Shown piece by piece: positions 11,639 through 35,363 of a DNA stretch of 64,000 bases (position 1 is the stretch's first letter; the number at the start of each line of letters is the position of its first letter). The notes beneath the pieces were generated by a model. That model saw only the letters and a program-made list of their open reading frames with translations. It was not told where the DNA came from and did not search any database. The position numbers were made by a program, and so were the translations under genes. The stretch is from positions 1 to 64,000 of the IMG/VR virus record IMGVR_UViG_3300030037_000006; one strand, 5' to 3'. The DNA is from a virus.

Positions 11639-12691
11639 CTAGTATTCGTCTTCACCATAAATTTCAGGTGTCCACTCAATATTATCTTCCAAGAAATCTC
11701 TAAGATCAGAAGCAAACTCGCTATCTAGATAAATCTCCATTTGATCTCCGCGTCCAATTGGAGTGTCAATTTCAACTTCAATTGCGTTAGGTTCATCTTC
11801 ATCAAACTCTTTAATGAATCCTACTGTAATTGTTAGCTGTTCACCTGATTCTAATTGGTCTGCTGGAATAGTGTAGATATTATCTACTTGATAACTTAGA
11901 TCATCACCAGGAGTATGGCTTGTCATGTTCTCAAATCTAAATCTAGTTTGAGTTTCACCACCTACATAGTCACTTATTGCATCGGACACTTCTGCAAACT
12001 TATCCCAGGTTTCTTTAAGACCTTCTTTAGTTTGAGCTGCATGTTTAACAGCTTCATCACTGATTTCTTCAACAGCATTAGGATCTTCTTTAATCTGAAG
12101 AGCATTACCGTAAATATCTTTCATTCCACCGACAACACTTTCATCACTAAGATTAAATTCTTGAACTTTAGGTCCACGACTTTGAGCGACTTCAATAGCT
12201 GAATTGTATTTAGTTAAGAATAACTCGATAGCATCTTCATCAGCAAGTTCAATGCGGTATTTGTATTCAGTTACATCTTCTTTTACAAAAACTGTCTTAA
12301 CTTTATCTAAATCTTTTTTAATAGATTCTACCTTTTTATCAAAGGCTTTATTTGTCTTAACTGATTTTAAACTTTCTACTTTAGTTGTTATAGCAGATAA
12401 ATTCAATGATAATTTCTCATCAGGTTTCCTTGATTCTTTAAGAAGATTATCACCTTTAAGAAGTTCAGTAAACTTAGCTAAGTTTTCTTCTGTTCTAAAG
12501 CAGAAGTTAAAAAGTATTTTTACTATGTAATCTTCTTCATCAAAGTTAGCTCGAGCAATTTCAAGAGCTTTATCTCCATTAGTACCAGACACTTGAACTG
12601 AATGTTTAAAGTCTTTCATCGGGTGCTTAGTGTATTCTTCTTTCATAATTTGAGTCTTAGTTGACTCATATAGTTTCATAAATTTTGACAT
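11639..12691 (-). CDS. putative internal head protein (MSKFxKLYES leader family)
   Basis: Starts MSKFMKLYESTKTQIMKE; several internal (L/F/I)xE sites (LKES, VKED, IKED, LKET). Confidence 0.7.
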   Translation of the reverse strand: MSKFMKLYESTKTQIMKEEYTKHPMKDFKHSVQVSGTNGDKALEIARANFDEEDYIVKILFNFCFRTEENLAKFTELLKGDNLLKESRKPDEKLSLNLSAITTKVESLKSVKTNKAFDKKVESIKKDLDKVKTVFVKEDVTEYKYRIELADEDAIELFLTKYNSAIEVAQSRGPKVQEFNLSDESVVGGMKDIYGNALQIKEDPNAVEEISDEAVKHAAQTKEGLKETWDKFAEVSDAISDYVGGETQTRFRFENMTSHTPGDDLSYQVDNIYTIPADQLESGEQLTITVGFIKEFDEDEPNAIEVEIDTPIGRGDQMEIYLDSEFASDLRDFLEDNIEWTPEIYGEDEY

Positions 12692-12692
12692 G

Positions 12693-13244
12693 TTATTTAG
12701 CTGCTACTGAAGATTTATCATCTACTGCATAAACGACTCTGCCTCCACCACTGTTAGACCATTGCAAATCCATATTACTAAGTAATACGTATCTCTTAGC
12801 AAATTCCTCATCGTCAGTATTATACAAATGCCAACCATGCTCAGCGTGCTTATTTTCATCTGTCATATTACCAGAGAAGCCGCCCATCTTATATATTGCG
12901 AATTGGCCATCTTTAGACAATTTTGATTTATCGATATCATATATGTTACCGTCAAACCAATCTGAATCTAAGAATTCGTTTGCGTCTGCTTCGCTGGTAA
13001 ATTCTAAAGGGCGTCCAAACTTGAAAGCTACTTCAGCAGGTTGAAACACGTGTGTCAATTTAGGACCATTATGCAGATGAGCAAAACGTCCAGGTTTTAC
13101 TGGCGCAATAAAGTAACCGCGCTCTCGCCAGGTCTTACCGTTTTCGTTATAATCAGGTGCTAGTGCTGAAACTTCATCAGAGTATGTTACGTTCTCGTTT
13201 AGAGCTTGTTTAGTTGACTCGTATAATTTCATAAATTTTGACAT
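12693..13244 (-). CDS. putative internal head protein (MSKFxKLYES leader family)
   Basis: Starts MSKFMKLYESTKQALNE; late box GATAAATA at 13276-13283. Confidence 0.7.
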   Translation of the reverse strand: MSKFMKLYESTKQALNENVTYSDEVSALAPDYNENGKTWRERGYFIAPVKPGRFAHLHNGPKLTHVFQPAEVAFKFGRPLEFTSEADANEFLDSDWFDGNIYDIDKSKLSKDGQFAIYKMGGFSGNMTDENKHAEHGWHLYNTDDEEFAKRYVLLSNMDLQWSNSGGGRVVYAVDDKSSVAAK

Positions 13245-13274
13245 TATTTCTCTTTTGTTTAAATCGTATTTTAT

Positions 13275-13715
13275 CTATTTATCTAGAATAGTGAGATTTA
13301 CTTGATCGAATAGCTTCTCTATATCTTCTAAAGTTTGTACGCTATCTGGTACATCGATTTCAACAATTTTGAAACCTTTATCTATTAAGTCACCTACGTT
13401 TAAACCAAGTTGGCCATGTTGAGCAAATTGATACTTACCGTTGACATAATTATAGCGCTCTCTAAGTTCAACTCTTTCTAAATCAGTGTAGTTGTTATAG
13501 CCGTAAGAACCAATCTTACCTATGAATTGAATATCATCATCTAGATGAGACTCATCATTTCCTAAAATCCATTGACCAGTTTGTGGTAAACGACTTTCTT
13601 CCGTAGGAGAATATTTATTAAGATAGTCATCCTTTTCTAGGTATTGTAAATGTTCAGAACTCTCGGATACTAGCCGAGCTTTAGTTGATTCGTATAGTTT
13701 TTTAAATTTTGACAT
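13275..13715 (-). CDS. putative internal head protein (MSKFxKLYES leader family)
   Basis: Starts MSKFKKLYESTKARLVSE; AAGGA RBS. Confidence 0.7.
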   Translation of the reverse strand: MSKFKKLYESTKARLVSESSEHLQYLEKDDYLNKYSPTEESRLPQTGQWILGNDESHLDDDIQFIGKIGSYGYNNYTDLERVELRERYNYVNGKYQFAQHGQLGLNVGDLIDKGFKIVEIDVPDSVQTLEDIEKLFDQVNLTILDK

Positions 13716-13726
13716 GTTATTCCTTA

Positions 13727-14185
13727 TTAGTGCATAGCCATGGGAACATGACCAGTAGGGTTGTAGTTATCATAATGAGCAAGAACAGCTTGAGTTGCAC
13801 CTTCTAAATCATTAGGCATTGCCATCTTATTCTCTTTACCTTTATTGAATGCTTTGCTATTAGATCTTAATTCTTTAGTAGCCCATAGTTCACGGGATCC
13901 CATTGACAAATTTCCTTTATTCTCAGAATAAGTATACACTAATCTTTTACCTTCATCAAATTTGAATTCAACTGAATCAGGATTTTCAACAAAGTCATAG
14001 AAGTTTCCAGCAGACTTTACTGTTAGATACATATCAAATAATCCATCAATGTTTTTTACAAACTCACCAAGCTTGGCGGGTTTATTAGATTTCATAGATT
14101 TATATACTTCATAATCGCGGGGTGCTTCTTCTTCTTTGAAGAATTGAGCTTTAGTTGATTCATACAACTTATTAAATTTTGACAT
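13727..14185 (-). CDS. putative internal head protein (MSKFxKLYES leader family)
   Basis: Starts MSKFNKLYESTKAQFFKE; late box at 14214-14221. Confidence 0.7.
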   Translation of the reverse strand: MSKFNKLYESTKAQFFKEEEAPRDYEVYKSMKSNKPAKLGEFVKNIDGLFDMYLTVKSAGNFYDFVENPDSVEFKFDEGKRLVYTYSENKGNLSMGSRELWATKELRSNSKAFNKGKENKMAMPNDLEGATQAVLAHYDNYNPTGHVPMAMH

Positions 14186-14212
14186 AATGTTATGTGTCTC
14201 TTTGTATTTTAT

Positions 14213-14530
14213 CTATTTATCTAAGGAGACGTTTCTCAATTGTAAAATTTCGTCCAATTGGTACTGATCAGGTTCTGCTGAAATAGGAAGAATTAAGTCG
14301 TCTCCTTCCATGTATGATCCAGCATCCCAATACATATCAGTAAATATCTGGTCTCGTTCTAGTATGTTAAATATTTTAGCATAGGCGCCTCTAAATTTAT
14401 TCTGAGTGCCACTTTTAGATACAGTATCAGGGTTCTTAATATTTTTAATGCGAAAAGTTATACCTGTATTAGCGTCAGATTCAGTGAATTGAGCTTTAGT
14501 TGATTCATACAACTTTATAAATTTTGACAT
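14213..14530 (-). CDS. putative internal head protein (MSKFxKLYES leader family)
   Basis: Starts MSKFIKLYESTKAQFTE; late box at 14554-14561. Confidence 0.7.
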   Translation of the reverse strand: MSKFIKLYESTKAQFTESDANTGITFRIKNIKNPDTVSKSGTQNKFRGAYAKIFNILERDQIFTDMYWDAGSYMEGDDLILPISAEPDQYQLDEILQLRNVSLDK

Positions 14531-14578
14531 GCAATTCTCTTTTATATTTTATCTATTTATCTAGAATATAAACATGTT

Positions 14579-14625
14579 ATATGATAAGTACAACACAAAA
14601 GGCCTAAATAAATAGACCTTTTATT
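14579..14625 (-). repeat. terminator + early promoter cassette, copy 2
   Basis: Near-identical to 7932-7977. Confidence 0.85.
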
Positions 14626-14633
14626 AAGTGAGC

Positions 14634-14879
14634 CTACATATCTTTAAATAAAGTATAGGACTTATCTTCATGTAGATCATATAGTCTATTGAATTTATCT
14701 ACATTTCTAGAAACAAGTGATTTAACACGGAGAGTATCTGTATCTCTTATAGCAACATGGAGTAACTTGTCACCTGCCTTATATTCTTCGCCAAATAAAT
14801 CCGTTGTATTTAGCAATCGTGATATCACTTCAGCAGTTAAACTCTTTGATGTTTCTAGTTGTTCTTCTATAGTATGCAT
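14634..14879 (-). CDS. hypothetical protein
   Basis: 81-aa ORF at the distal end of the tRNA cluster. Confidence 0.55.
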   Translation of the reverse strand: MHTIEEQLETSKSLTAEVISRLLNTTDLFGEEYKAGDKLLHVAIRDTDTLRVKSLVSRNVDKFNRLYDLHEDKSYTLFKDM

Positions 14880-14913
14880 AATTAAACTCGTTTCTTATGT
14901 TGAATGTAAAAAA

Positions 14914-14988
14914 TGGAGCCTGCTGAGAATTCCGAGATCTCAACCCCCGACTTACAAAATCGGCGCTCTGCCTTTGAGCTAAGCAGGC
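14914..14988 (-). tRNA. tRNA-Thr(TGT), atypical T-arm
   Basis: Acceptor GCCTGCT/AGCAGGC + TCCA; anticodon arm CCGAT-TTTGTAA-GTCGG; T-loop CTCGGAA. Confidence 0.85.
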
Positions 14989-15001
14989 TCTTATAATAAA
15001 T

Positions 15002-15079
15002 TGGTCGGAGTGGGAGGATTTTAACCTCCGGTTTCCGCATCCCAAATGCGGCGGATTAAACAGACTATCCTACACTCCG
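15002..15079 (-). tRNA. tRNA-Pro(TGG)
   Basis: CGGAGTG/CACTCCG + ACCA; CCGCA-TTTGGGA-TGCGG; T-loop TTAAAAT. Confidence 0.9.
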
Positions 15080-15086
15080 ATAAAAC

Positions 15087-15163
15087 TGGAGAGTGATGTC
15101 AGATTCGAACTGACGCATGGAGGATTTGCAATCGACCGCCTTAACCAACTTGGCTAATCACTC
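15087..15163 (-). tRNA. tRNA-Cys(GCA)
   Basis: GAGTGAT/ATCACTC + TCCA; loop TTGCAAA; anticodon stem has two mismatches. Confidence 0.85.
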
Positions 15164-15172
15164 TTTTAAAAC

Positions 15173-15250
15173 TGGTAGCGGGAGAAGGATTCGAACCTCC
15201 GACCTCTTGGTTATGAGCCAAGTGAGCTGACCTAACTGCTCCATCCCGCA
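15173..15250 (-). tRNA. tRNA-Met(CAT), initiator-like
   Basis: TGCGGGA/TCCCGCT with 1:72 mismatch + ACCA; CTTGG-CTCATAA-CCAAG. Confidence 0.9.
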
Positions 15251-15259
15251 ATAAAAACT

Positions 15260-15336
15260 TGGTTGTGATACGAGGACTTGAACCTCGGACAATTCGGATA
15301 TGAACCGAGCGCTCTAACCAACTGAGCTATATCACA
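15260..15336 (-). tRNA. tRNA-CAT (elongator Met or Ile2)
   Basis: TGTGATA/TATCACA + ACCA; loop TTCATAT. Confidence 0.85.
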
Positions 15337-15344
15337 AACTAAAA

Positions 15345-15416
15345 CTACTCCACCTGGGTACGATCCAAGAATGGGTGGATCAAAACCACCTGTGTTACCA
15401 ATTACACCATAGAGTA
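15345..15416 (-). tRNA. tRNA-Gln(TTG), no encoded CCA
   Basis: TACTCTA/TGGAGTA; GGTGG-TTTTGAT-CCACC; T-loop ATCGTAC. Confidence 0.85.
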
Positions 15417-15420
15417 AAAG

Positions 15421-15500
15421 TGTGCCGAGTAGGACTCGAACCTACACGTCTAAGACCAGGGATTTACAGTCCCCTAAGCGACCAATTGCTCAATCAGCAC
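15421..15500 (-). tRNA. tRNA-Tyr(GTA)
   Basis: GTGCTGA/TCGGCAC; GGGGA-CTGTAAA-TCCCT; variable arm GTC-TTA-GAC. Confidence 0.88.
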
Positions 15501-15539
15501 AGTGTTTGGTTAATTGTTGCCATGGGAAACCAATCCATG

Positions 15540-15606
15540 TTGTAACCACGACTTGAACGTGGACTCACTGTTCGAACAGCAGCTCTTGCCAGTTGAGCTA
15601 TTACAA
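15540..15606 (-). ncRNA. tRNA-like RNA with shortened anticodon arm
   Basis: TTGTAA/TTACAA acceptor, intact D-arm (GCTC/GAGC) and T-arm (CCACG-TTCAAGT-CGTGG), but the anticodon arm is only 14 nt (GCTGTTCGAACAGT). Confidence 0.7.
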
Positions 15607-15617
15607 AATCTTAAAAA

Positions 15618-15770
15618 TGGTGCTGGCCACAGGATTCGAACCTGCACATTAGCCCGGTTTTCAAAAAGTACCTTTCTGCAGTTAATACTAATCTACTCAG
15701 CAATGACCGTATATGTTACGTTCCCTCGTTAGCTATCCTACATGTAGGGACTACATCAGTAACAACCAGC
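15618..15770 (-). ncRNA. 153-nt RNA with tRNA-like acceptor stem, T-arm and CCA
   Basis: 5' GCTGGTT pairs with GGCCAGC + ACCA; T-arm GCAGG-TTCGAAT-CCTGT; ~120 nt non-tRNA interior. Confidence 0.75.
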
Positions 15771-15844
15771 TTATTAAATGTTAGTCTTTCCTATCAGTCA
15801 ACTAATTTCACATCATTTAGAAGTCAGATCTATTAGATTTAAAG

Positions 15845-15916
15845 TACGAATGCTCGGATTTGAACCGAGAAGTCCTGGGTGGAAGCCAGGCATTTTACCG
15901 TTGAAATTACATTCGC
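15845..15916 (-). tRNA. tRNA-Gly(TCC)
   Basis: GCGAATG/CATTCGT; CCTGG-CTTCCAC-CCAGG. Confidence 0.88.
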
Positions 15917-15955
15917 ATGTGTTTGCTAGTCTTTCCTAACAGTCATTATACTAAG

Positions 15956-16028
15956 CATCTCCAACGAGACTCGAACTCGTGTTGCCGGGATGAAAACCCG
16001 GTGTTCTAACCAACTGAACTATAGAGAC
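15956..16028 (-). tRNA. tRNA-Glu(TTC)
   Basis: GTCTCTA/TGGAGAT; CCGGG-TTTTCAT-CCCGG. Confidence 0.9.
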
Positions 16029-16031
16029 ATG

Positions 16032-16125
16032 TGGCAGAAGAGGTCGGGATCGAACCGACATGCCCATTTAAACTGACAAACGAGTTAGCAACCCGTGACG
16101 ATACCAAATTTCGCTTTACTCTTCT
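16032..16125 (-). tRNA. tRNA-Ser(GCT)
   Basis: AGAAGAG/CTCTTCT + GCCA; ACGGG-TTGCTAA-CTCGT; long variable arm. Confidence 0.88.
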
Positions 16126-16244
16126 ACATTTGCTAGTCTTTCCTAGCAGTCATTGAATACTATCTGCGTTGAAAGGCGCCGCCTTCCATTGATAAGCTCA
16201 GTAGATAGTAACCACTTCGCGAATCAATTTGGGATAATACTAAG

Positions 16245-16317
16245 CGAGCCATATCGGATTTGAACCGATGTTGCAGGATAGACAATCCCGAGTCCTAACC
16301 AACTAGACGAATGGCCC
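16245..16317 (-). tRNA. tRNA-Asp(GTC)
   Basis: GGGCCAT/ATGGCTC; CGGGA-TTGTCTA-TCCTG. Confidence 0.88.
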
Positions 16318-16446
16318 TTATCCTACTTTTTCTAACTGATGGTAGGAGCATCATTGTCACCATGGTCGACTTTAGGTTCTAATCAGGACCAACGGAGTCT
16401 AACAGTTTTTAAACTGGAGGGAATCGAAGGCGACCCTTTGTTAAAG

Positions 16447-16535
16447 TGGAGAGACAGGGATTCGAACCCTGGGATGCATTGCTACACCGCTAGTTTTCAA
16501 GACTAGATCTTTAAGCCGGACTCAGACACCTCTCC
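16447..16535 (-). tRNA. tRNA-Ser(TGA)
   Basis: GGAGAGG/TCTCTCC; CTAGT-CTTGAAA-ACTAG; long variable arm. Confidence 0.9.
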
Positions 16536-16932
16536 AAAAATATGCTAGTCTTTCCTAACAGTCATTCGATCAAATATTATGCACACTTTAAGAGCGTATA
16601 AACTTTAGCAGGCCTACTATGCATGTTCATCCTACCGCTTCTAAGCATTACCGAAGTAATTTCATCTCTAACCTTCTAAGTCACATTTGATCAAAACTAG
16701 TCTTTCCTAGCTGTCATTAAATTATCTACTACGTGATTGAAATAAATCTACTAGCCGTACGGAAATCTTCATGGATAACTACTTGCCGGGATAATTTAAA
16801 TTTTATTACTATCACAATATACAGAACATTTGGCGGGTATGCGTAACATACTGTAAACTACTTTCGATCAAGTTATAACCACAAAGCAGGTGGCTTAGTC
16901 TACGATAGCTGGGATAGTAATAAAAGTCAATA

Positions 16933-17042
16933 GTTATAATAGAGTACTCACAGAAGGATTCGAACCTCCGAGGTAATTACTTCCTACCCGCAAGCGGCGG
17001 GCTACTTTAAACCACTCAGCCATGCTAGCAGTCTATTATAAC
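16933..17042 (-). ncRNA. degenerate type-II tRNA-like RNA inside an 11-bp outer stem
   Basis: D-loop GAGTGGTTTAA, T-arm GGAGG-TTCGAAT-CCTTC, variable arm, non-canonical anticodon loop CCGCTTG; flanks GTTATAATAGA/TCTATTATAAC. Confidence 0.65.
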
Positions 17043-17046
17043 AAAG

Positions 17047-17119
17047 CTCCGCGGGCAGGGTACGATCCTACAACCTACTCATTAACAGTGAGTCGAACTA
17101 CCAATTGTTCTACCGCGGA
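17047..17119 (-). tRNA. tRNA-Asn(GTT)
   Basis: TCCGCGG/CCGCGGA; ACTCA-CTGTTAA-TGAGT; T-loop ATCGTAC. Confidence 0.9.
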
Positions 17120-17122
17120 ATT

Positions 17123-17791
17123 TTAAAATTTCATTTTTCTTCCTTTAATCCAACCTTTACTTAAATAATCTTCTAGATCAGTTTTATGTATAGATTTACT
17201 AACCTTTTCTTCAAGGCTATGAATCCAACATTTACCGAATTGAGAATTACCAGATCCTTTTTGAGCCTTCGATGTTACTAAGCCAATCTTTCTCTTAGTT
17301 TCATCTGTATGCTGTTTACCTAACCAGAAAGTATTTCCCTTAAGACCTTCAGATATATTTAAGCACCATTGCTCGTATTTACCTGATTCTTTAAGAACGT
17401 TTACTAATTCTGCTCCACATAAAAGATTCTGTTTTCCTCTGCCATCTTGACCATTTAATACATTACCATTATCGTCATAATATAAATTACCACCTGCTTC
17501 CATAGACTCATGCCAATTGGCACCTTGTCCACCTACACAGCGATTATAAGTATCAGATCGACATACAAAATCAAAGTCTACTAACTTAGCTTCTAATAAA
17601 TCCATTTCATCTGAATCGTTACATTCGAATAAAATTTCTCTCTCAAAGAACTTAGTTCCGAATAATTTAATATCTTCACGAAGTTTAGTACCAGAACCTA
17701 GATAACCATCATCTAGCTTTTCTGTTTTATGCTGACCTATATAGATCTTGTTGTTAATTGTATTGGTTGTTTTATAAATGATGTAGTGCAT
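17123..17791 (-). CDS. free-standing GIY-YIG (Seg-like) homing endonuclease
   Basis: YIIYKTTNTINNKIYIGQH...YLGSG...FEREIL; NUMOD3-like GKQHTDETKRKI; lies beside tRNAs, as T4 segB does. Confidence 0.88.
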   Translation of the reverse strand: MHYIIYKTTNTINNKIYIGQHKTEKLDDGYLGSGTKLREDIKLFGTKFFEREILFECNDSDEMDLLEAKLVDFDFVCRSDTYNRCVGGQGANWHESMEAGGNLYYDDNGNVLNGQDGRGKQNLLCGAELVNVLKESGKYEQWCLNISEGLKGNTFWLGKQHTDETKRKIGLVTSKAQKGSGNSQFGKCWIHSLEEKVSKSIHKTDLEDYLSKGWIKGRKMKF

Positions 17792-17977
17792 GATAAATTC
17801 CTATAGATTGTTCTATAGTTATTTATCTCTTAGTTCAAGAAGTTCGAACTAATCTTGAACTACATCAAGTTTTTCTTACATTTCTTACATTCTGTCAATG
17901 ATCTTTTTTAATAACTACGCTTTCGAGTTATTTGTTATATGATTTAATATACAACACTTTAGGTTTTTGTACAACAG

Positions 17978-18009
17978 AAAAGGGATAAAAACTAATGTTT
18001 TATCCCTTT
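17978..18009. terminator. bidirectional intrinsic terminator
   Basis: aaaagggataaaac-taat-gttttatcccttt. Confidence 0.75.
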
Positions 18010-18185
18010 ATTAATAAATTCTGTTACAAATATTATTCAGGGATTATGAACTCCACTATACGACGGATAGTCAGAGCCGCAAGGTTCTGATGTATTATTC
18101 ATTGTATTTTGTTGCTTAGTCATAATCATTTCGTTCTTTTAATTTGTATATGTATTTATCTGTTTTTCCGGTAGTAACTGACGGA

Positions 18186-19025
18186 CTATTGGTTCTTCAC
18201 TATATTCTTTAGTTTAGAAGTATGTACGCCTGCTAATTCTACACCATCTTTGAAATCGATAGTATAATGATCTTCTATAGATTCACCATCTCTATAAGTT
18301 CCACCACGGATTGTAGCTTCCTTTTCATCATAATGAGATAATGAGTTCGAACCAGATCTTAGGTCAGCATGATCAAAATTATACTTTCTATAATTATCTA
18401 AATCATTTTTGTCATATATGAAGATTGCGGTATCACCCTTAGATATATCAAATTCAGAATCAGTACTTTCATTTAATGATAGGTTTAGTTCAAAGAATTC
18501 ATCTACATCAGCAGCATTAATATAATCACCGTGACCTACGAATAGAACTCCATTAGAACTGAAATCTTTGATTCGTTTCTTTCTTCCTTCCTTGACCCAT
18601 AGTTTTTCATCACCGAAGAATGCTTTCTTGATAGTGATAGGATTGTATTGAAGCTTCTCTTTAGTAAGATCATGCTTAGCAACTAATGAATCTCCAATGG
18701 AATAAGATGCTTTAATCTTATCAATAAGTTCATCTGACTTTGCATGTTTAGCATCTGCTTCATCCTGCTTTTCTTGCTTCTGAGTTTCAACACTATCAAA
18801 TTTGTCAAGTAATGTTTTACTAATAGTGAAACTTCCATCACCTAAAACAGTTACAACATAATGATCATCATTTATTTCTGTAATTCTAAATTCAGAAGTT
18901 AAATAAGTCATATTAGGATGGTAACCTTTATAAGGACTAATCTCTCTTCGGTCTTTACTATATCCGTATCCTTGTGAACGGTGGATATCGAAATGATCTC
19001 CTACTTTATGTCCTTCAGTATACAC
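18186..19025 (-). CDS. hypothetical late protein
   Basis: GTG start overlaps the TAG of the upstream gene, GGAGA RBS; internal LNES site. Confidence 0.7.
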   Translation of the reverse strand: MYTEGHKVGDHFDIHRSQGYGYSKDRREISPYKGYHPNMTYLTSEFRITEINDDHYVVTVLGDGSFTISKTLLDKFDSVETQKQEKQDEADAKHAKSDELIDKIKASYSIGDSLVAKHDLTKEKLQYNPITIKKAFFGDEKLWVKEGRKKRIKDFSSNGVLFVGHGDYINAADVDEFFELNLSLNESTDSEFDISKGDTAIFIYDKNDLDNYRKYNFDHADLRSGSNSLSHYDEKEATIRGGTYRDGESIEDHYTIDFKDGVELAGVHTSKLKNIVKNQ

Positions 19026-19714
19026 TAGTATCTCCGTGTTTTATCTTGTGCAGCTTTTTCTTCAAAAGTTTCTTCGTCTTCTTCTAATACTTCAGACTCA
19101 CCAATTACAAGAGGCTCTATTCTAAAGTTAACTACTTCTTGACCTTCTACTTTTACACAAGTAACACTCATGTTTTCAAGCAAAGTTTCTAGGTAGTGTT
19201 TAATGTTATTGGCAATTGCTTCTACATCATCGTCTTCGGCAGTGAGAGTAAACGCAAGAATTCTTTTAGCATCTCTTCCAGTATCTCCTGGATGTTTATC
19301 TGTACCAACAGTTTCAGATTTAATATCACCAACTTCTACATCGCCATAAAACTCTACACCATCTTCAATGTATTTTTCTAGGTCTGCTTTAAGAGTGTCT
19401 TCAAATTGATAAGTTTCGTTTTCAATATCTTCAAATACTGTCTGTACTTCTGGAAGAATTTCTTTAATTGCATTTTTAAAATGTGTATAAAATTTGTCTC
19501 TGAATGAATGAGGTACATTGTTTTTATCAAGTTTTGCAGTATACTTAGGTAAGAGATCATTAATTTTATTCTCTAAATGCTCACCTAAGTTCAGAACATA
19601 CTTCAGATATTGCTCATCAGTTGCTTCAGTTAAAATAGCTTCCATTATTGGAGTTGGAGTTTTAGTATCTTTCTTGACACTTTCATAAATTGAGTTAAAT
19701 TTACTAGGCTTCAT
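19025..19714 (-). CDS. putative internal head protein (leader variant)
   Basis: Starts MKPSKFNSIYESVK...IMEAILTE; late box at 19746-19753. Confidence 0.65.
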   Translation of the reverse strand: MKPSKFNSIYESVKKDTKTPTPIMEAILTEATDEQYLKYVLNLGEHLENKINDLLPKYTAKLDKNNVPHSFRDKFYTHFKNAIKEILPEVQTVFEDIENETYQFEDTLKADLEKYIEDGVEFYGDVEVGDIKSETVGTDKHPGDTGRDAKRILAFTLTAEDDDVEAIANNIKHYLETLLENMSVTCVKVEGQEVVNFRIEPLVIGESEVLEEDEETFEEKAAQDKTRRY

Positions 19715-19755
19715 AGTGTTTCCATGATTAAATTAATATTTAGTATATTTATCAT

Positions 19756-20406
19756 TTATGAGTAAAGCTTGGATGCCATGATACTTAACAAAATTTTATC
19801 CGCATCTCCATCGCTTACTGAATCTTCTCCATATATGTTTTTTACATCTACACAGATATATCTAGGTGCATTGAATTCATCTAAGCCGTCATAGCGTTCC
19901 ATCTTAAAGTACTTTTTATTAGGTTGTCTTAAGTGTTCCAGTGACTCAGAATCCTTACCACTAATCAATATAGCATCTTTAATATCCATGGGTTCCACAG
20001 CTTTGTATAACAAGATCTTTTGTTTAGTTGCAGCAATGCTACCGAAATGGTTTACCCACCATTCTACATTTTCCTGAGTTCTAGCCGCAGCATTCTTTGC
20101 AAATATAGGAGTAGGATTATCCGCAGATCTCATTCTGATATGAATAGGATAGTCATTGAGAATATATGTATTACCTTTAAGAGCTCTCATCTTTACATAC
20201 ACTTTAAACTTAAGCTCATAAAGTGTTAGTCCTACAAACAATGTCATAGTATTGCCTGCTAAGAAGTGGAAGAATAAATCATAACGAGTCTCATTATAAA
20301 AGAAGTATGAGAATAATAAAGTAGATGTCAGTAATAATATTAATGTGCTAATATATTCTTTAGCGTTGAGCTCATCTTCTAATCTATTTCTGTGGTGTTT
20401 TGTCAT
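19756..20406 (-). CDS. membrane protein, C-terminal -LYS motif
   Basis: Two N-terminal TM segments; ends SKLYS. Confidence 0.65.
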   Translation of the reverse strand: MTKHHRNRLEDELNAKEYISTLILLLTSTLLFSYFFYNETRYDLFFHFLAGNTMTLFVGLTLYELKFKVYVKMRALKGNTYILNDYPIHIRMRSADNPTPIFAKNAAARTQENVEWWVNHFGSIAATKQKILLYKAVEPMDIKDAILISGKDSESLEHLRQPNKKYFKMERYDGLDEFNAPRYICVDVKNIYGEDSVSDGDADKILLSIMASKLYS

Positions 20407-23856: not shown

Positions 23857-24423
23857 CTATAAGTTTAATTTAAATTGTTTGTATGGAGTGTCTACTACTG
23901 AGCCTTTAAGTGATACTGCGAATTCATCAGATGATCCTTCAGTATTATCAAGTTCTGTCTCTTCTATATAATTCTTACCTGTGCCAGGTTTAAGATAAGC
24001 TAATGTTATGTGGCCATTGTATTCATCATAAATATTAGAGTTATCTAATTCAGAAAGTTTATCACATAATGCTTGCATATCATCTGATTCAATGCCTAGT
24101 TTTAAAACATCATAATCATCATTCTCAAACAAAGATAAACCTACAATAGTAAATTCAAATTCATTCTTTTCTAGTTCAGCCATCTTATCTTTGATAACAT
24201 CTAAGTCATCTGTGTGTATTCCATACAATGCCGTGATATGAGATTCAGTTTCTAATCCAGGAGCCCATCCATCTTTCGAAAGATCTTCTTCTTTGATTTT
24301 AGATTGAATATCTTCAATTGATTTAAGAGTATCTTCGTCATTAATAACAAGCATTATGCAACTTGAATCTCTCAATTCTACTTTATTTTTAATAGACTCA
24401 TATAGCTTCATAAACTTAGACAT
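23857..24423 (-). CDS. 2H phosphoesterase (Acb1/T4 57B-like) with MSKFxKLYES leader
   Basis: Two HxT motifs (SHITALYG; EYNGHITLAY); late box at 24509-24516. Confidence 0.8.
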   Translation of the reverse strand: MSKFMKLYESIKNKVELRDSSCIMLVINDEDTLKSIEDIQSKIKEEDLSKDGWAPGLETESHITALYGIHTDDLDVIKDKMAELEKNEFEFTIVGLSLFENDDYDVLKLGIESDDMQALCDKLSELDNSNIYDEYNGHITLAYLKPGTGKNYIEETELDNTEGSSDEFAVSLKGSVVDTPYKQFKLNL

Positions 24424-24539
24424 TTAAAGCCTCTACTTCTTTTACACATGTTACAGTTACAGCGGAATATATTATCACGCATTCTCATTTTCCATAAATT
24501 GTTTATTTTATTTATCTTTTAATTGTACATTAACCAAAC

Positions 24540-25471: not shown

Positions 25472-25521
25472 AAAATGCTCACCAATTAAGATGAGCATTT
25501 TAAATACTTAGTTAGACTAAA

Positions 25522-28146: not shown

Positions 28147-28255
28147 TATATATTTTCCTTGGTTTGATTAATTTTATTTTATATATTTATCAAAAAAACA
28201 GAAGAACTGCTCAAGTTTAATAAATAGTACATATAACAAACTACAGGAAAATAAA

Positions 28256-29029
28256 ATGCCTATTAGCACAATTAATGATTTAGTTATTAAAGACAGAGAG
28301 TCTCTTTGTAATTGGATTGAAAGACAGTTTGGTGCCCCTTTGATTCGTGTTGAGCTTACACAAGAAATGCTCGAAGATGCGATCGATGAAGCCACCCAAG
28401 AATATACGAAGTATGTAACACCAGAAGAAAACTTCATGGTACTTGACAGCACTATGAAAGTAGAAGATATTCCTAATAACTTTGACGGATATAAACTTCC
28501 TGATAATATTGTTGGTGTGAATGGGGTTACTTCACAGAGAGCACTCAGAAACTTCGCAATGCAATTAGATCCAGGAATGAGTAGATCCACAGCGTTCGGT
28601 TTAAGTGGTGGTATAAGTTCTACTGGCACTCCCGGTTTTTTAACTAGCTTTCATATGACAATGTCTCATATTGATTTACTTGAAAGAATGGCCGGTGGAG
28701 ATTTTCAATTCAGATACAACAATGCTAACCAAGAATTACAGATTTACCCTGAACTCAAACCTCATGAAAAAGTTATAGTTCTAGGACAGGAATATCGTGA
28801 AGAACAATTCGTTTACGGTGAAAAATGGGTTAAAGAATATTCTAAAGCTTGTGCCGGTATTATGTTAGGTATGGTACGTGGTAAGCATGAATCAGTAACA
28901 CTATTAGGTGGATCATCTATTTCGGCTACTGCATCTAATTTCATTGATAAATTTGAAGCACGTAAAAGAGAATTAGAAGAAGAAATTCTTAAAAGAGAAT
29001 ATCAAGTTCTTCAGTTCTACACTATGTAA
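28256..29029 (+). CDS. neck protein (T4 gp13-like)
   Basis: FGAPLIRVELTQE.LEDAIDEA; WVKEYSKA...RGK...LLGG. Confidence 0.88.
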   Translation: MPISTINDLVIKDRESLCNWIERQFGAPLIRVELTQEMLEDAIDEATQEYTKYVTPEENFMVLDSTMKVEDIPNNFDGYKLPDNIVGVNGVTSQRALRNFAMQLDPGMSRSTAFGLSGGISSTGTPGFLTSFHMTMSHIDLLERMAGGDFQFRYNNANQELQIYPELKPHEKVIVLGQEYREEQFVYGEKWVKEYSKACAGIMLGMVRGKHESVTLLGGSSISATASNFIDKFEARKRELEEEILKREYQVLQFYTM

Positions 29030-29076
29030 GATATAAACAACAGAATAGACTGGAAATTAATCCAGTCTATTTTTGT

Positions 29077-29685
29077 CTAAAGAGCTATTAACGCGCTTTT
29101 TACTAGGCCAGAACCGATAGTAACAACAAGGTCTTTTCCGTATTCAATTACTTTATCTCTGAGTTCTTCAGCAGCATTATCTATATGCTTTACTAATATG
29201 TTAATAATAGAAGCTATTGAATGTTTAATACTGAATTTAACTCGAGTAATAAAAGCTTCGAAGTCTCCAATAGTATCACCAATCTTAAGCATGTTTGTAG
29301 TATTAATAGAAAGTTTATCAACATCAATGATACCAGAAAAAACTGTGTATGCACTACTAGAAAGCATAGTAACGGACTTAGTAATTAAATACATAGAGTC
29401 TTTAATCATATCCATTTCGGATTTAGATAAAGGATTTCCTGCGCCCTCTGTGTACTTCATAATATCATCAAGTAACTGATCTCTTTTCTGAGTAGTGAAT
29501 GAAGTTATCATGTCTGCAGAATCAGTTAAAAATTTAGATCTAACATTACCGTCAGTCAAATCAATTATAACTTCACCTAGCTTAAGTTTCTTTTTGAAAG
29601 CTTTAATTGCATTATCTTTAAGTTCATCAATTTGAGATTCAACCTTTTCACTGATTAAATCATTTAGTGAGTCTAGGATACTCAT
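29077..29685 (-). CDS. hypothetical helical protein co-transcribed with a lipoprotein
   Basis: 202-aa ORF with hydrophobic C-terminus. Confidence 0.6.
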   Translation of the reverse strand: MSILDSLNDLISEKVESQIDELKDNAIKAFKKKLKLGEVIIDLTDGNVRSKFLTDSADMITSFTTQKRDQLLDDIMKYTEGAGNPLSKSEMDMIKDSMYLITKSVTMLSSSAYTVFSGIIDVDKLSINTTNMLKIGDTIGDFEAFITRVKFSIKHSIASIINILVKHIDNAAEELRDKVIEYGKDLVVTIGSGLVKSALIAL

Positions 29686-29933
29686 TATTCAAACGCTGCT
29701 TTAAAAGAATCCAAGTTATTCTGTCTAGCTTTAATTTCTAGCTTACGATAAATAGGATCGATTTTTCCATCAGGACCTTTGCCCATGTTTGGATCATTCT
29801 TTACATAGTTCATATACTCTTCACCTACAGTATCAGCAAAAGAAGTAGCTGCAATTTTGTGATGGGTACAACATCCAGATGCTAACGCAAGTATTGCAAT
29901 TAGTACTATCAATGTGGGTTTAATTTTCTTCAT
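29685..29933 (-). CDS. small lipoprotein
   Basis: MKKIK + hydrophobic stretch + lipobox LASG-C. Confidence 0.7.
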   Translation of the reverse strand: MKKIKPTLIVLIAILALASGCCTHHKIAATSFADTVGEEYMNYVKNDPNMGKGPDGKIDPIYRKLEIKARQNNLDSFKAAFE

Positions 29934-29973
29934 AATATGTTCCTTGTTTATCTTTTATAAAACAACTTTATTG

Positions 29974-30603
29974 CTATTTAATTGTTTTCTTTGTAACGGT
30001 TGCTTTCTTTACTTTGACTTTATTATGATCTTTTGGAGTTTTAACTTTATCAGCTTTCTTATATCCAGTTTTTCCTTGTTTATCAGCCATACGAAGTTTA
30101 TAAAACTCAGTGAAACTTTGCATCTTAACCTTAACACCTTCACCATGATCTTCGGCAACTTCTTGATCTATCTCTAAAGTACCAAGCTTTTTGGCTTGAG
30201 CATTAACTAATTTCATAATGGCTTTCATTTCCATTACTTCATCTTTAATAGCTGCTTTAACAATAGTAAGAGTTTCGCTTTCATAAAGATCTACAACGAT
30301 TCCAAGATCAGCAAGATCTCTAACCTTAACTAATATAGTAGGCTTATCAGTACGAGCATAAGTAAAGTCTTCGCCGATAGCTTCCCAGTTATGGATTGAG
30401 TTATGAGTGTATACTGAGCAAGTTGGATATTTTTGGTTAAGATAACCTGAAACCCAGTTAACAGAGTCAGTTGAATCAACTTCACATAAAAGTACGATTG
30501 GTAGAATGTGGTCATCTAAAGAATCTGTTCCAGCTTGTATTGCACTGTCGATTGAATCTACTGTAGGACGCTTAATTAGTTGTCCGTATTTAGAAATTGG
30601 CAT
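29974..30603 (-). CDS. hypothetical late protein with Lys-rich C-terminus
   Basis: Late box at 30637-30644; AAGGA RBS. Confidence 0.65.
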   Translation of the reverse strand: MPISKYGQLIKRPTVDSIDSAIQAGTDSLDDHILPIVLLCEVDSTDSVNWVSGYLNQKYPTCSVYTHNSIHNWEAIGEDFTYARTDKPTILVKVRDLADLGIVVDLYESETLTIVKAAIKDEVMEMKAIMKLVNAQAKKLGTLEIDQEVAEDHGEGVKVKMQSFTEFYKLRMADKQGKTGYKKADKVKTPKDHNKVKVKKATVTKKTIK

Positions 30604-30644
30604 ATATTTCCTTGTTATAATAATTGTATTTTGTATTATTTATC

Positions 30645-30960
30645 TAAAAAGAGTATAAGATAGTAATATTATCTAGAATATTATCTAGATAGTACTAGAA
30701 TAGTACTGTCGGTTCTCTCTATTCTATTACTGGGAGTGGGAGGGTGAGGGTAGTCATTAGATAAGAAACACATTATTTTTAAATATGCATAAGTTTTTTA
30801 CGTTGTTCATAAACCATTGGAATACAACAACATAAAAGTTAAACCTTTTTTCATCTTGGGTGTATGAATTCACAGTATTTTTTAAATGTCTCATACATAT
30901 ATACTTATCAGCTAAGCTAAATGCTTTTAATAGAAAGAAACAAACTAAACGTAATATGTG
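30645..30960. other. non-coding AT-rich region with tandem repeats and a G-tract; candidate replication origin
   Basis: aatattatctag x2 (30665-30688), atagtact x2, GGGAGTGGGAGGGTGAGGG (30732-30750). Confidence 0.4.
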
Positions 30961-31046
30961 AACTAAAAAATGGCACCATAAGATGCCATTATAAATGTTA
31001 GCTATATTGAATTATAGCTTGTTTGTAAGATGACGTCTAGCGCTAT

Positions 31047-31553
31047 CTACATAGATTCTGGTGAAACTACTATACAATCTGGACACCAGTTATCTTCATT
31101 CATTTCCATGCAGGTTTTACGGTTACCTCCTGTCACAGATGATGTTGCAAAGGCTATTAATTGATCCTTAACGTCTCCATCTGGAAATGCTGCAAAAATT
31201 ACGCTATGGAATGGAATGGCCCATTCTTCACGATCAGGATGTTTAATAGCATTTACTGTTAAGAAGTCATAAGAATTTAATAAATCTTCCACCTCAGTTG
31301 CACCTTCTCTATCATATCCAACTGACCAACTGGTTGGATATGCAATGTTAGGCTCTCCTTCCATTGGGAATTCGTTATATACTTCATATATCAAATCTAT
31401 AACATCCTGCTCTACTGTACCTTGTACTGATACAGGCTGACCACTAGCCATATGTACATTTACTTCAACTGCTCCTATATGATATACTTCTAATATAGGA
31501 TTACAATTTACGTAATAGACTTTATTTTCTGAATCTTGTATTTCTATTTTCAT
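31047..31553 (-). CDS. hypothetical late protein
   Basis: 168-aa ORF, AAGGA RBS, last gene of the LRR operon. Confidence 0.65.
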   Translation of the reverse strand: MKIEIQDSENKVYYVNCNPILEVYHIGAVEVNVHMASGQPVSVQGTVEQDVIDLIYEVYNEFPMEGEPNIAYPTSWSVGYDREGATEVEDLLNSYDFLTVNAIKHPDREEWAIPFHSVIFAAFPDGDVKDQLIAFATSSVTGGNRKTCMEMNEDNWCPDCIVVSPESM

Positions 31554-31578
31554 ATTTATTTCCTTTTAAATTTTAATT

Positions 31579-33540
31579 TTATACTGGTACTGTACCGGTT
31601 ATAGACCAACCTTTTGATATCAAATTATTATAAGCTGTTAAACTAGTTGCACTAGGACTTCCTGCGTTATTAGCATAATCTAACGTACCGTTAGATAAAC
31701 CGTTACTATCCAACTGTATTATAATATTATCAATTTCTGTTGGTGTTAGTAAATTAAGATTGACTTTTAATATCAATAGATTAGCATTCTGTGTAATATC
31801 TAGAGCTGTTAAGTCATTATTACTTGTATCCAAATATGCTAATGCTGTGTTTTGGGTCATATTCAGAGTTGAAATGCTATTATCATAGCATCTTAAATCT
31901 TCTAACAGTATGTTAGTAGTCATATCAAGAGCTGTGATAGCATTTTGGTTACAATATAATATTCTTAATGTAACATTATTAGTAGTTACTGCGGCAGTTA
32001 AATTATTATTTTGACACCAAACTTGGTCCATTATAACATTAGTGGACAAGTCAAGAGACGTAAGCAAATTATCTTGACATCTTAGATGCCTCAGTAGTAC
32101 GTTTGCACTAGTATCTATTGTGGTCAATAAGTTAGATGAAACAAAAATTGTTGATAGCTTTATATTGTTGGTAATATCAATAACTGTTAACATGTTATTG
32201 TAAATTAGAAAACTTACCATGTTAACATTATTGGAAACATCGATAGTTGTTAGGTTATTTTCATGGATGTTAAGGCCAAGTATTAAAGGATTCTGCGTTA
32301 AATCAATAGTTGTTAGATCATTGTCATTTAAAAAGAAATAATTTATAAGCGGACATTGTGTTGGATCAATTGTGGCAATTGCACAGTTGCTGGCATTGAC
32401 CAATGCCAGCAACGGGTTCTGTGTTATATCAAGACTTGTAAAAGCGTTTGCCACGCATGTTAATCCTTCTAACAATACATTCTGAGTAATATCTAGACTA
32501 GGGAGGTTTGTAGATGAACAGTTTAATATTTCTAGTACTACATTCTGAGTAAGATCTATAACTGAAATGCTGGTAGATGAAAAGTTTAACACTTCTAGTA
32601 CTACGTTCTGAGTAACATCAAGAACTGTTATATTATTATTGTTGCATCTAAGTTCTTGTAAAACAGTGTGTGGAGTTACATCAATCGCAGTAAGACCTGT
32701 ATTATTACTACAGTCAAACGCTTCTAGTAACAAGTTCTGACTAATATTAATAGCAGCAATGCTATTATTCTGACATCTAAATTCAGTTAACAATGTATTT
32801 AGAGTTACGTTAATAGCTGATAAACTGTTATCATGACATAGGAAGTGTTCCAGTAATGTAAGGTCAGTAACGTCAATAACTGATAATAAGTTATTCTGAC
32901 AGTTAAAAGTATCCAATAACACGTTATTGGTAACATCAAGAACTGAAATAAGATTATCATTACATCGAAAATCTGTTAATAGTGTATTGGTAGAAACATC
33001 AAGGGTTAATAATTCATTAGAGCCTACCCAGAATTCATCTAGCTGAGTATATGGAGTAACATCAATTGCTGCTAGATCATTAAAATCGATTTTTAGTATT
33101 AGCATAGCTAATGGATTGCTAGGTAAAACAATGGATGTTATATCATTACTTGAAACATATACTTCTTGAAGAACAAATTGATTAGATAAATCAAGTGCTG
33201 TTATAAGGTTAAAGTCTAAATGTAATTCGATAAGGTTAATCATCGCGGATACATCAATCTGAGTAATAAAATCATTTTCAATATTCATGATAGAAATTTT
33301 ACCAGGATTGATATCATATATATCTATGTCATGGAAGGACTCAGCATCAGTGTATGAATGTGTCGGATTATTAATTCCAACTGAGTCAGCTTCACCATCA
33401 TTCCAATTCCATGAAGCTAGAGAACTGTCTGAAAACGTAAGGGTTGGTGAAATAGATGTTTGACTAGATGTTCTGAAAATAGCTAGCAATAATTTATTTA
33501 CTGCGCTATTTAGTACACCTCGTCTTAATAAAAAGCTCAT
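31579..33540 (-). CDS. leucine-rich repeat protein (internalin-like ~21-aa repeats)
   Basis: About 25 tandem repeats of type LxxLDxTxNxxLxxLxCxxNx; likely start MSFLLRRG at 33540. Confidence 0.9.
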   Translation of the reverse strand: MSFLLRRGVLNSAVNKLLLAIFRTSSQTSISPTLTFSDSSLASWNWNDGEADSVGINNPTHSYTDAESFHDIDIYDINPGKISIMNIENDFITQIDVSAMINLIELHLDFNLITALDLSNQFVLQEVYVSSNDITSIVLPSNPLAMLILKIDFNDLAAIDVTPYTQLDEFWVGSNELLTLDVSTNTLLTDFRCNDNLISVLDVTNNVLLDTFNCQNNLLSVIDVTDLTLLEHFLCHDNSLSAINVTLNTLLTEFRCQNNSIAAINISQNLLLEAFDCSNNTGLTAIDVTPHTVLQELRCNNNNITVLDVTQNVVLEVLNFSSTSISVIDLTQNVVLEILNCSSTNLPSLDITQNVLLEGLTCVANAFTSLDITQNPLLALVNASNCAIATIDPTQCPLINYFFLNDNDLTTIDLTQNPLILGLNIHENNLTTIDVSNNVNMVSFLIYNNMLTVIDITNNIKLSTIFVSSNLLTTIDTSANVLLRHLRCQDNLLTSLDLSTNVIMDQVWCQNNNLTAAVTTNNVTLRILYCNQNAITALDMTTNILLEDLRCYDNSISTLNMTQNTALAYLDTSNNDLTALDITQNANLLILKVNLNLLTPTEIDNIIIQLDSNGLSNGTLDYANNAGSPSATSLTAYNNLISKGWSITGTVPV

Positions 33541-33565
33541 TAAGTATCTCTTTTTTAAATTGTTA

Positions 33566-34129
33566 TTATGTAATATCGCCAGAAGCAATCCAAGTATTAA
33601 TGGATCTTTGTGTAAGCGTACAACCCTGAAACTGAGAATTTATTACAACACTACCATCCAAAACTCCGTTTATTGTAACACCGGTTGCTGCTTGGATAAT
33701 TGTAACTCCTCCGCCTTCACGCATAATATTAATTTTTGCAGCGACTTCGAAATCTACACTGGAATTAAGAGGAATTGTTACTGTATTAATAGCTATGTTG
33801 TCCATCCATATTGTAGTATTTTCTTGATCAGTTAATACTAATTCGTATGCTGTACCTGTTTGATCATTGTCGAATCCTGCAACAATGACATCAAAGTGAT
33901 CAGTTATGTCAATAGCACCGCCACCACTCCCGGTTACATCTGTCCAATCCATATTACCGGCACCATTTTTCTGGTAGAGTTTTGGTACATCGTTACGTAT
34001 AGCAAGAGACCCTTCTGGAAGATCTAATCCTGAAACAATAGGATCTGACGAGATTACAGTTATACCGACTGTGCCGGCTAGCTTAAATCCAAAGCTATTG
34101 AAGAAATGCGCATAATCTGTATTAGCCAT
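33566..34129 (-). CDS. probable virion/tail-fibre-associated protein
   Basis: QTGTAYELVLTD...TVTIPLNSSVDF...GVTING...WIASGD module typical of phage fibre proteins; late box at 34164-34171. Confidence 0.7.
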   Translation of the reverse strand: MANTDYAHFFNSFGFKLAGTVGITVISSDPIVSGLDLPEGSLAIRNDVPKLYQKNGAGNMDWTDVTGSGGGAIDITDHFDVIVAGFDNDQTGTAYELVLTDQENTTIWMDNIAINTVTIPLNSSVDFEVAAKINIMREGGGVTIIQAATGVTINGVLDGSVVINSQFQGCTLTQRSINTWIASGDIT

Positions 34130-34242
34130 TTTTAATTATCCTTTCAATTTGAAATATTTATTATATTTATCATTATTTTAGATATAGAGGTTTAAATTTA
34201 GTAAAGCTGTGGTATATTAGTAAAAACTATTAAGGAGATTAC

Positions 34243-34668
34243 ATGAACATTGGAATTATCGGTACTCGTAAAAGAGACAGCCAAGAAGATTATGATCATA
34301 CATTATCAGCATTCAACTCTATTATTAAGCAATACATTCATGTAGGACAAATAAAAGGAGTAGAAGATATTAAAATTGTTTCAGGTGGATGTCCTAAAGG
34401 AGGAGATCGATTTGCTGAATTAATTCACACTGAACTTGATCTTAAACCTGAACAATTAATAATTCATCTCCCTGAAAAGCCCCCAATTGGATCACCTAAA
34501 TACATGTATGTTAGATCTATGCATGATCGTAATGATCTCATTGCTAGAGATTCTGATGTTTTGCTAGCAGTTACTGATCATGGATCGAAAAAAGGTGGAA
34601 CTCTTTATACTATTAAGAAGTTTAAAGATGTTACACCAATGGGTACACTTAAATGCTATCAGATTTAA
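34243..34668 (+). CDS. SLOG-superfamily (DprA/YspA-like) protein
   Basis: GIIGTR, VSGGCPKGGD, RNDLIA..SD.LLA, GGTLYT. Confidence 0.8.
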   Translation: MNIGIIGTRKRDSQEDYDHTLSAFNSIIKQYIHVGQIKGVEDIKIVSGGCPKGGDRFAELIHTELDLKPEQLIIHLPEKPPIGSPKYMYVRSMHDRNDLIARDSDVLLAVTDHGSKKGGTLYTIKKFKDVTPMGTLKCYQI

Positions 34669-35363
34669 TTAGCAGATATTTTAAATAGTGTTAAAGCATG
34701 AGTAGAGTTTGGATTTAGAGAAGCTATAAGTCTCTCTGTCTCATAAATACTAGCACCTGTACTTATCACATCATCAAGAATAAGAACGTTTTTATCTTCG
34801 ATTATTGCTAAGAGTTTATCTGAATCTTCTTCTGAAAATTCTAAGAATCCTCTGAATAACAAAGCGAATTGTTTAAAGACGTTCTTCATTTTGATCTCAT
34901 TAAAGCCTTTCTTACGTAATGACTTTATAGATTCGTCACCACCTTTTTGTACACTAGCTTTATGCTCATCTTTTATAACATCTAAGTTCATGTGTATGCT
35001 ATCTAAGTTAGATTTTTTAATATCATTGAAAATAATAACATCGTCTGGTACGATAGACATCAAATCTTTTAAAACTCTAGAATCACTTCCAGGTACTGCT
35101 AGTACATCGATATCATTTTCTTTAATGTAATCAAGCAAATACTCTTTACTTGTCTCTAACATATCTAAATATTCATCCTCAGTTATATTAGGGTCTGATT
35201 TCTTTATTTCTTTGATGTAAGCGATGCCTTCCTTTCCCATAGAGAAAACTGACTTAATTGCTAGACCTGAACCTGAATTCTTATCAGATTTCTTGTACAT
35301 TCCGTTCTTTTTCTTTTTAAATCTAGTACTTTCTGCTAAATATAAAGCTAAAAATTTACTCAT
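34665..35363 (-). CDS. type I phosphoribosyltransferase-domain protein with leader variant
   Basis: PRPP loop VLILDDVISTGAS; starts MSKFLALYLAES; late box at 35395-35402. Confidence 0.8.
   Translation of the reverse strand: MSKFLALYLAESTRFKKKKNGMYKKSDKNSGSGLAIKSVFSMGKEGIAYIKEIKKSDPNITEDEYLDMLETSKEYLLDYIKENDIDVLAVPGSDSRVLKDLMSIVPDDVIIFNDIKKSNLDSIHMNLDVIKDEHKASVQKGGDESIKSLRKKGFNEIKMKNVFKQFALLFRGFLEFSEEDSDKLLAIIEDKNVLILDDVISTGASIYETERLIASLNPNSTHALTLFKISAN

Follow-up and report, generated by a model that had tools for sequence, protein, structure and literature searches.

Why should ten phage proteins that have nothing else in common begin alike? The question is raised by IMG/VR virus record IMGVR_UViG_3300030037_000006, the first 64 kb of which (positions 1 to 64,000 of 90,761 bp, hereafter the window) we analysed here. 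A sequence-only reading of this stretch had picked out nine open reading frames (ORFs), lying between 11639 and 35363, that share an N-terminal leader of the form MSKFxKLYES, and had proposed that the leader loads their products into the phage head. Judged by its head and tail genes, the virus is a deep-branching, very divergent, uncultured T4-like myovirus, and the principle of such a leader is already known from T4 and the other T-even phages, in which unrelated internal proteins share only a capsid targeting sequence (CTS). [quoted passage not shown]

The nine ORFs of the window, all on the minus strand, stand with the coordinates and N-termini first given for them; the size of the family does not, as a scan of the whole record brings in a tenth leader gene outside the window (79458-80150, plus strand). 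All ten start with MSKFxKLYES or a close variant of it. When the window was translated in six frames, the core pattern KF..[LI]YE matched eight times, each time at residues 3-5 of an ORF, and the leader motif occurred nowhere else in the translation; the ninth window member (34665-35363), with a variant leader that ends in LAE, lies outside these matches. No similar start was found on any other predicted gene of the record. Behind the leader, as had been claimed, the resemblance ends: the proteins range from 105 to 451 residues, and no pairwise similarity is detectable among the ten bodies after residue 16 (best BLASTP E = 0.42). Three of the window's leader proteins are listed in a protein database on a contig of 255,591 bp, so the 90.7-kb record covers only part of a genome of about 256 kb; further leader genes may lie in the unseen 165 kb, and the true family size may be higher.

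The 21 leaders compared, from seven records, hardly vary at K3, F4, Leu or Ile at position 7, Y8 and E9; position 5 is free, and a hydrophobic residue is usual at position 15. Phe4 together with Leu or Ile at 7 is present in all ten members here and in 19 of the 21 leaders as scored, the two exceptions being register-shifted. As a sequence pattern, the leader ends in L-Y-E/S or I-Y-E/S in nine members and in L-A-E/S in one, where the slash marks the presumed cut. The sequence-only reading had also noticed a second hydrophobic-x-Glu site in most members, and the count agrees: scored with its Glu anywhere at residues 13-21, such a site occurs in seven of the ten (Glu at residue 17, 18 or 20) against a background of 17% in the 99 remaining predicted proteins (p = 3e-4, binomial). 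This two-site layout suggests a propeptide of IPI-like length that would be removed in two cuts.

What has been kept is the peptide, and not the nucleic acid that encodes it. Outside the free position 5, pairwise comparison of the leader codons gave 141 synonymous and 46 non-synonymous differences, while the next twelve codons gave 9 synonymous against 229 non-synonymous ones, and RNAalifold predicted no shared RNA pairs in the -30 to +40 regions. Because synonymous changes dominate the leader and no shared RNA structure accompanies them, the peptide is the conserved entity, and selection acts on it and not on the DNA. Other phages likewise keep the leader peptide in different codons. Three of the leader genes have a near-identical promoter stretch in common, which fits a spread of promoter-plus-leader cassettes.

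That every member lies in a unit headed by a late box had been part of the sequence-only reading as well. The box in question, GATAAATA, occurs 32 times against about 14 expected, and 28 of the 32 boxes have a same-strand ORF start within 85 nt downstream; the ORFs behind them include the portal, the protease, a 52-residue ORF before the scaffold, the major capsid protein (MCP), the tail tube and the sheath. The T4 late promoter is TATAAATA, and by analogy we infer that GATAAATA is a late promoter read by the gp55-like factor of this phage. It stands 13-85 nt upstream of seven of the ten leader genes, and the remaining three (11639, 13275 and 22488) are each the next gene in a unit that such a box heads. 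A side observation concerns the terminase gene, the longest ORF of which begins at 35389 on the plus strand and contains a GATAAATA box at 35412. With the box inside this ORF and the next ATG at 35449, the true start is probably 35449, a start that faces the divergently oriented late box of leader gene 34665-35363.

The proteins with which such a leader would have to work are encoded in the same genome. PHROG profiles recognise, besides the protease, the MCP and the late sigma factor, a T4-type portal (42699-44702), gp46/47-like nuclease subunits, tail sheath, tail tube, large terminase and a gp3-like sheath stabiliser; the best MCP match, at about 30% identity, is to cyanophages, and megablast of the region against GenBank phages returned no match. 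Aligned with T4 gp21, the prohead protease retains the His of G-E-L-x-H-P and the Ser of S-x-R-G, which we take to be the catalytic residues. The presumed scaffold is an acidic, repeat-rich protein of 398 residues without a profile match, and its T4-gp22-like start ends in L-L-E/S. In the MCP the R-L-N-E/A motif lies at about residue 59, in a region that aligns just ahead of the T4 cut, so that the same type of site does recur in MCP and scaffold, as first proposed. The 52-residue ORF may encode a small core protein of the prohead, comparable to T4 gp67 or gp68.

How closely does the leader follow the T4 pattern? In the T4 record, ipII and ipIII start with a ten-residue CTS ending in I-A-E, and ipI has a related start peptide with a 19-residue propeptide ending in I-T-E; all three leaders have an aromatic residue at position 4, a hydrophobic one at position 7, and the ending I-x-E. 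The same record has gp22 starting M-L-K-E-Q-L-I-A-E, gp24 with L-R-E/S at residue 10, and gp23 with L-T-E/A at residue 65. In the IPIII CTS, amber-suppressor analysis assigned targeting mainly to residues 4 and 7, and processing to residues 8 and 10 (PMC9026906). The leader described here is likewise a short N-terminal peptide on otherwise unrelated, presumably late proteins, with an aromatic residue at position 4, a hydrophobic one at 7 and a terminal hydrophobic-x-Glu cut site, in a genome that also has a gp21-type protease and a gp22-type scaffold. The propeptide of most members would be 17-18 residues long, close to the 19 of IPI. The set of leader proteins differs from that of T4 in the sequence of the leader itself, in the number of members, which is ten in 91 kb here against three in T4, and in a cargo that is acidic, reaches up to 451 residues and includes enzyme folds.

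The surroundings of the genes are comparable as well, since the leader cluster, like the T4 ipI locus, adjoins a tRNA array (14 genes, 15002-17119), with a 57B-like 2H gene and a gene for a homing endonuclease close by. T4 has the order 57B (Acb1), ipI, three small ORFs and the tRNA array with segB; here, all on one strand, the 57B-like leader gene 23857-24423 is followed by more leader genes, then by a GIY-YIG endonuclease, the tRNA array and finally the cluster of five leader genes.

Precedents for a variable set of tagged proteins come from the T-even phages, whose internal proteins are diverse and share only the CTS, and whose ip loci are polymorphic (PMC3012670, PMC12373910; reviews citing Repoila et al. 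1994). The T-even proteins Ip1-3 are injected anti-defence proteins that inhibit GmrSD enzymes (PMC3012670, PMC12373910). As with those polymorphic ip genes, the set found here is variable and is recognised only via its shared signal sequence; the T-even proteins, however, are small and come from close T4 relatives, whereas the MCP and portal of this virus are only about 30% identical to those of any cultured phage. Enzyme cargo also has a precedent, in the T4 ADP-ribosyltransferase Alt, which is packaged, processed by gp21 and delivered from the head minus its propeptide (PMC9026906), although Alt has its own 7-residue propeptide and not the leader of the internal proteins, while the enzymes here share theirs with small proteins. 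The ejection proteins of phiKZ and SPN3US have long N-terminal propeptides that are processed by the head protease and are thought to target the prohead (PMC5694885), but these are 80-160 residues long with an A/S-x-E motif, in contrast to the T4-sized tag of this virus.

What does the leader carry? The earlier statement that the cargo includes recognisable enzymes was borne out for two members, in which the leader lies outside an enzyme fold. By the fold of its model, the protein of 23857-24423 is an Acb1-like 2H phosphodiesterase. Its two HxT motifs (H62-I-T and H138-I-T) sit on a 2H fold, it passes the Pfam cut-off for PF13563 (2H ligase; 28.0, cut-off 27) and stays under that for PF23474 (Acb1; 25.8, cut-off 27), and it aligns weakly with T4 57B (E = 3e-4). 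The AlphaFold2 model, made with 34 homologues, has a predicted local distance difference test score (pLDDT) of 92.9, and in it residues 4-12 of the leader form a helix (pLDDT about 74) that lies before and outside the 2H core; its top Foldseek matches are a phage phosphodiesterase (9q2y) and Acb1 (7t26). The protein of 34665-35363 is, again by modelled fold, a ComF-like type I phosphoribosyltransferase (PRTase). The phosphoribosyl pyrophosphate loop is present (acidic pair and S-T-G), the score for Pfam PF00156 is 27.2 (cut-off 26.3), and the AlphaFold2 model, made with 49 remote homologues, has a pLDDT of 87.8, with residues 1-17 below 50 and the leader drawn as a low-confidence helix outside the PRTase core; the best Foldseek match is Helicobacter pylori ComF (7p0h), followed by purine phosphoribosyltransferases (HGPRTs). 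ComF proteins typically carry an N-terminal zinc finger.

For the other seven of the nine window members Pfam and PHROGs gave no family, and the tenth gene is also without a detectable one. With the two largest members (11639 and 22488), sequence searches of the PDB gave nothing usable and the ESM Atlas no usable match, and their own models reached a pLDDT of about 0.5; tblastn against cultured phages found nothing for three members or for one homologue.

The metagenomic homologues of the two enzymes extend the picture beyond this genome. Nearly all those of the 2H enzyme (proteins P0004-P0046; loci L073-L152) have an N-terminal extension of 19-23 residues, in which an aromatic residue stands at position 3-4 and a hydrophobic-x-Glu site some 7 residues before the core. 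The ComF-like family, of about 250 residues (proteins P0047-P0120), was found in metagenomes only, cultured phages giving no match, and many of its members start with T4-CTS-like peptides that end in Glu-Gly. In homologues of both enzymes from other metagenomic phages, the extension nearly always ends in hydrophobic-x-Glu shortly before the first core strand, and many of these extensions are CTS-like, some of them nearly identical to the T4 form and one near the MSKFxKLYES form. T4 57B was itself considered as a tagged protein and dropped, as only about 8 residues (by eye) appear to precede its first core strand and there is no cut site there.

The MSKFxKLYES version of the leader is itself found in other phages. 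In IMG/VR, a strict DNA pattern for the leader gave no match and MCP peptide patterns found no relative. A relaxed leader pattern gave 20 matches in metagenomes, of which only one, on a 3.8-kb contig (L012), looked real, and four in IMG/VR that were rejected as chance matches in high-GC contigs. A degenerate DNA pattern then yielded five IMG/VR records in which the match begins a genuine ORF and a motif like the late box lies upstream, and four of them (G001-G004) were analysed whole. Homologues of gp21 were found in G004 (225 kb, complete; 39% identity) and in G003 (35%), G004 has MCP, portal, sheath and terminase at 28-37% identity, and G001 has T4-type topoisomerase II, UvsX and helicase genes. 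There are four leader genes in G001, three of them consecutive and with a two-site layout like that described above, and one to three in each of the other three records. The bodies behind these leaders are unrelated to the ten here and mostly also to one another, so the tag is far more conserved than the head proteins while its cargo turns over, and the leader is found in front of unrelated proteins in T4-like phages other than this one, as the idea of a portable tag on varied cargo had it.

On contig L012, three or four adjacent small genes (2187-3754, minus strand) carry three CTS-like leader types, namely the T4 type, the MSKFxKLYES type and a third variant. Since the first two head adjoining genes, the contig links the T4-type leader to the one described here, and a single phage may accept several versions of it. 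At least 503 IMG/VR loci encode the 2H enzyme, and in a survey that covered ±8 kb per locus, the same leader (6-8 of 9 identities) stood on a neighbouring unrelated ORF at 5 of the 26 loci in which the extension could be delimited, against 8 of 502 between-locus controls (Fisher p = 2e-4; with one duplicate collapsed, p = 1.5e-3); with its ±8 kb view and simple rules the survey is supportive rather than decisive. This recurrence suggests that the version of the tag tends to follow the phage and not the cargo family, as would be expected of a portable address.

If the analogy with T4 holds, the ten genes would be transcribed late from GATAAATA promoters along with the head genes. The first 9-10 residues of each product would form a short helix, and Phe4 and Leu or Ile at 7 would dock the protein onto the scaffolding core during prohead assembly. 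The gp21-type protease would then cut after Glu9 (L-Y-E/S) and, in most members, a second time after the hydrophobic-x-Glu at about residue 17-18, which would free the mature protein inside the head, where the cargo would stay with the DNA and enter the host with it. Being short and self-contained, the tag would permit cargo genes to be exchanged as promoter-plus-leader cassettes. Docking, cleavage, retention in the head and injection are steps we infer; those parts of the capsid-loading proposal that sequence can address came out as it predicts, with a gp21-type protease, a gp22-like scaffold, the T4 CTS positions and selection at the level of the peptide. [quoted passage not shown]

Several observations weigh against assigning the leader to capsid targeting. 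The mature parts are acidic (isoelectric points of 4.2-6.0), unlike the basic T4 proteins IPII and IPIII. The Glu of the presumed cut is at position 9, versus position 10 in T4, the second site is missing in members 23857 and 34665, and S10, T11 and K12 are conserved past the first presumed cut, which the simple model leaves unexplained. In hydrophobic moment the leader does not clearly exceed shuffled sequences, and this measure was not used as evidence for an amphipathic helix. The best match of the portal to a cultured phage, Pelagibacter phage HTVC008M, is at only 28.5-29% identity, and the MSKFxKLYES form does not rise above control level in either T4 or HTVC008M. Some members, finally, could be structural core proteins and not injected cargo.

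This last point belongs to the alternative that survives best, which is that the tag serves another destination (the tail or baseplate, a non-capsid compartment, or the activation of a zymogen) or that it marks prohead core blocks that are degraded and not injected. T4 offers some support for it, in that the core proteins gp67 and gp68 are likewise cut by gp21 (PMC9026906). We nevertheless regard it as unlikely, because the tag is about 10-18 residues long and ends in a head-protease motif, resembles the T4 CTS position by position and lacks the hydrophobic core of a signal peptide, and because the cargo that can be identified consists of cytoplasmic-type enzymes, neither adhesins nor structural repeats.

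A second alternative, that the ten genes are fast-diverging paralogues whose N-terminus is left over from common descent and whose function has nothing to do with the capsid, we hold to be very improbable. The tandem arrangement of five members and the near-identical promoter stretch of three would fit local duplication, but two members belong to unrelated folds (2H and PRTase), each with homologues of its own elsewhere, and this difference in fold excludes simple paralogy for at least those two; the wide range of lengths with no residual similarity, and a leader that varies far less from phage to phage than the capsid proteins do, speak against it for the family. Slightly more improbable still is that the conserved 5′ part of the coding sequence acts as RNA or DNA and not through a functional peptide (as an enhancer of translation initiation, a repressor site or a cassette for recombination), for although the start region is AT-rich, promoter-plus-leader DNA is common to three genes and shared cassettes could help gene shuffling, which has reportedly been described for T4-type phages, the excess of synonymous changes, the lack of shared RNA pairs and the different codons of other phages stand against it, and a cassette role would be compatible with capsid targeting, not opposed to it.

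With capsid targeting as the preferred reading, what is new here is a leader version, distinct and strongly conserved, from a deep uncultured branch, a single genome with at least ten members and, it appears, two families of enzyme cargo that are tagged in many other phages too. If the tag works as in T4, the injected proteins of uncultured T4-like phages would be predictable from sequence alone, and the leader would be a pointer to anti-defence functions exerted before the phage expresses any gene. It would also suggest that Acb1-like nucleases and ComF-like proteins often arrive ready-made, and this would change the view of when CBASS is evaded. The near-invariance of the leader across phages with capsid proteins only about 30-37% identical marks a tightly constrained contact between tag and scaffold, which could be studied or reused for protein packaging.

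Leader genes, presumed late boxes and head-assembly genes of the window, with positions counted from its first letter
Feature	Position	Strand	Remarks
Leader protein, 350 residues	11639..12691	-	No known homologue; comes second in the unit behind the box at 13276-13283
Leader protein, 183 residues	12693..13244	-	No known homologue
Leader protein, 146 residues	13275..13715	-	No known homologue
Leader protein, 152 residues	13727..14185	-	No known homologue
Leader protein, 105 residues	14213..14530	-	First in the five-gene cluster adjoining the tRNA array
GATAAATA late box heading 14213-14530	14554..14561	-	
Identical GATAAATA boxes	14214-14221, 13276-13283, 19746-19753, 24509-24516, 35395-35402		
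Leader protein, 229 residues	19025..19714	-	Two extra residues ahead of the leader
Leader protein, 451 residues	22488..23843	-	Sole match among 5.8 billion proteins is itself
Leader and predicted Acb1-like 2H phosphodiesterase	23857..24423	-	Two HxT motifs
Variant leader (LAE/S) and predicted ComF-like type I phosphoribosyltransferase fold	34665..35363	-	
gp21-type prohead protease, presumed leader-removing enzyme	44744..45409	+	phrog_207, E = 2e-45
52-residue ORF with its own GATAAATA late box and a V-I-L-E/S site	45449..45607	+	Between protease and scaffold
gp22-like scaffold, presumed docking partner	45607..46803	+	N-terminus resembles T4 gp22
gp23-like major capsid protein, RLNE/A propeptide site	46896..48437	+	
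gp55-like late sigma factor, presumed reader of GATAAATA	48524..49114	+	PHROG profile

Two minor observations concern the tRNA array. One odd tRNA with a two-base anticodon was reported by ARAGORN at 15537-15608. The GIY-YIG homing endonuclease gene (17123-17791, minus strand) follows directly after the array and mirrors the position of segB in the T4 tRNA cluster.

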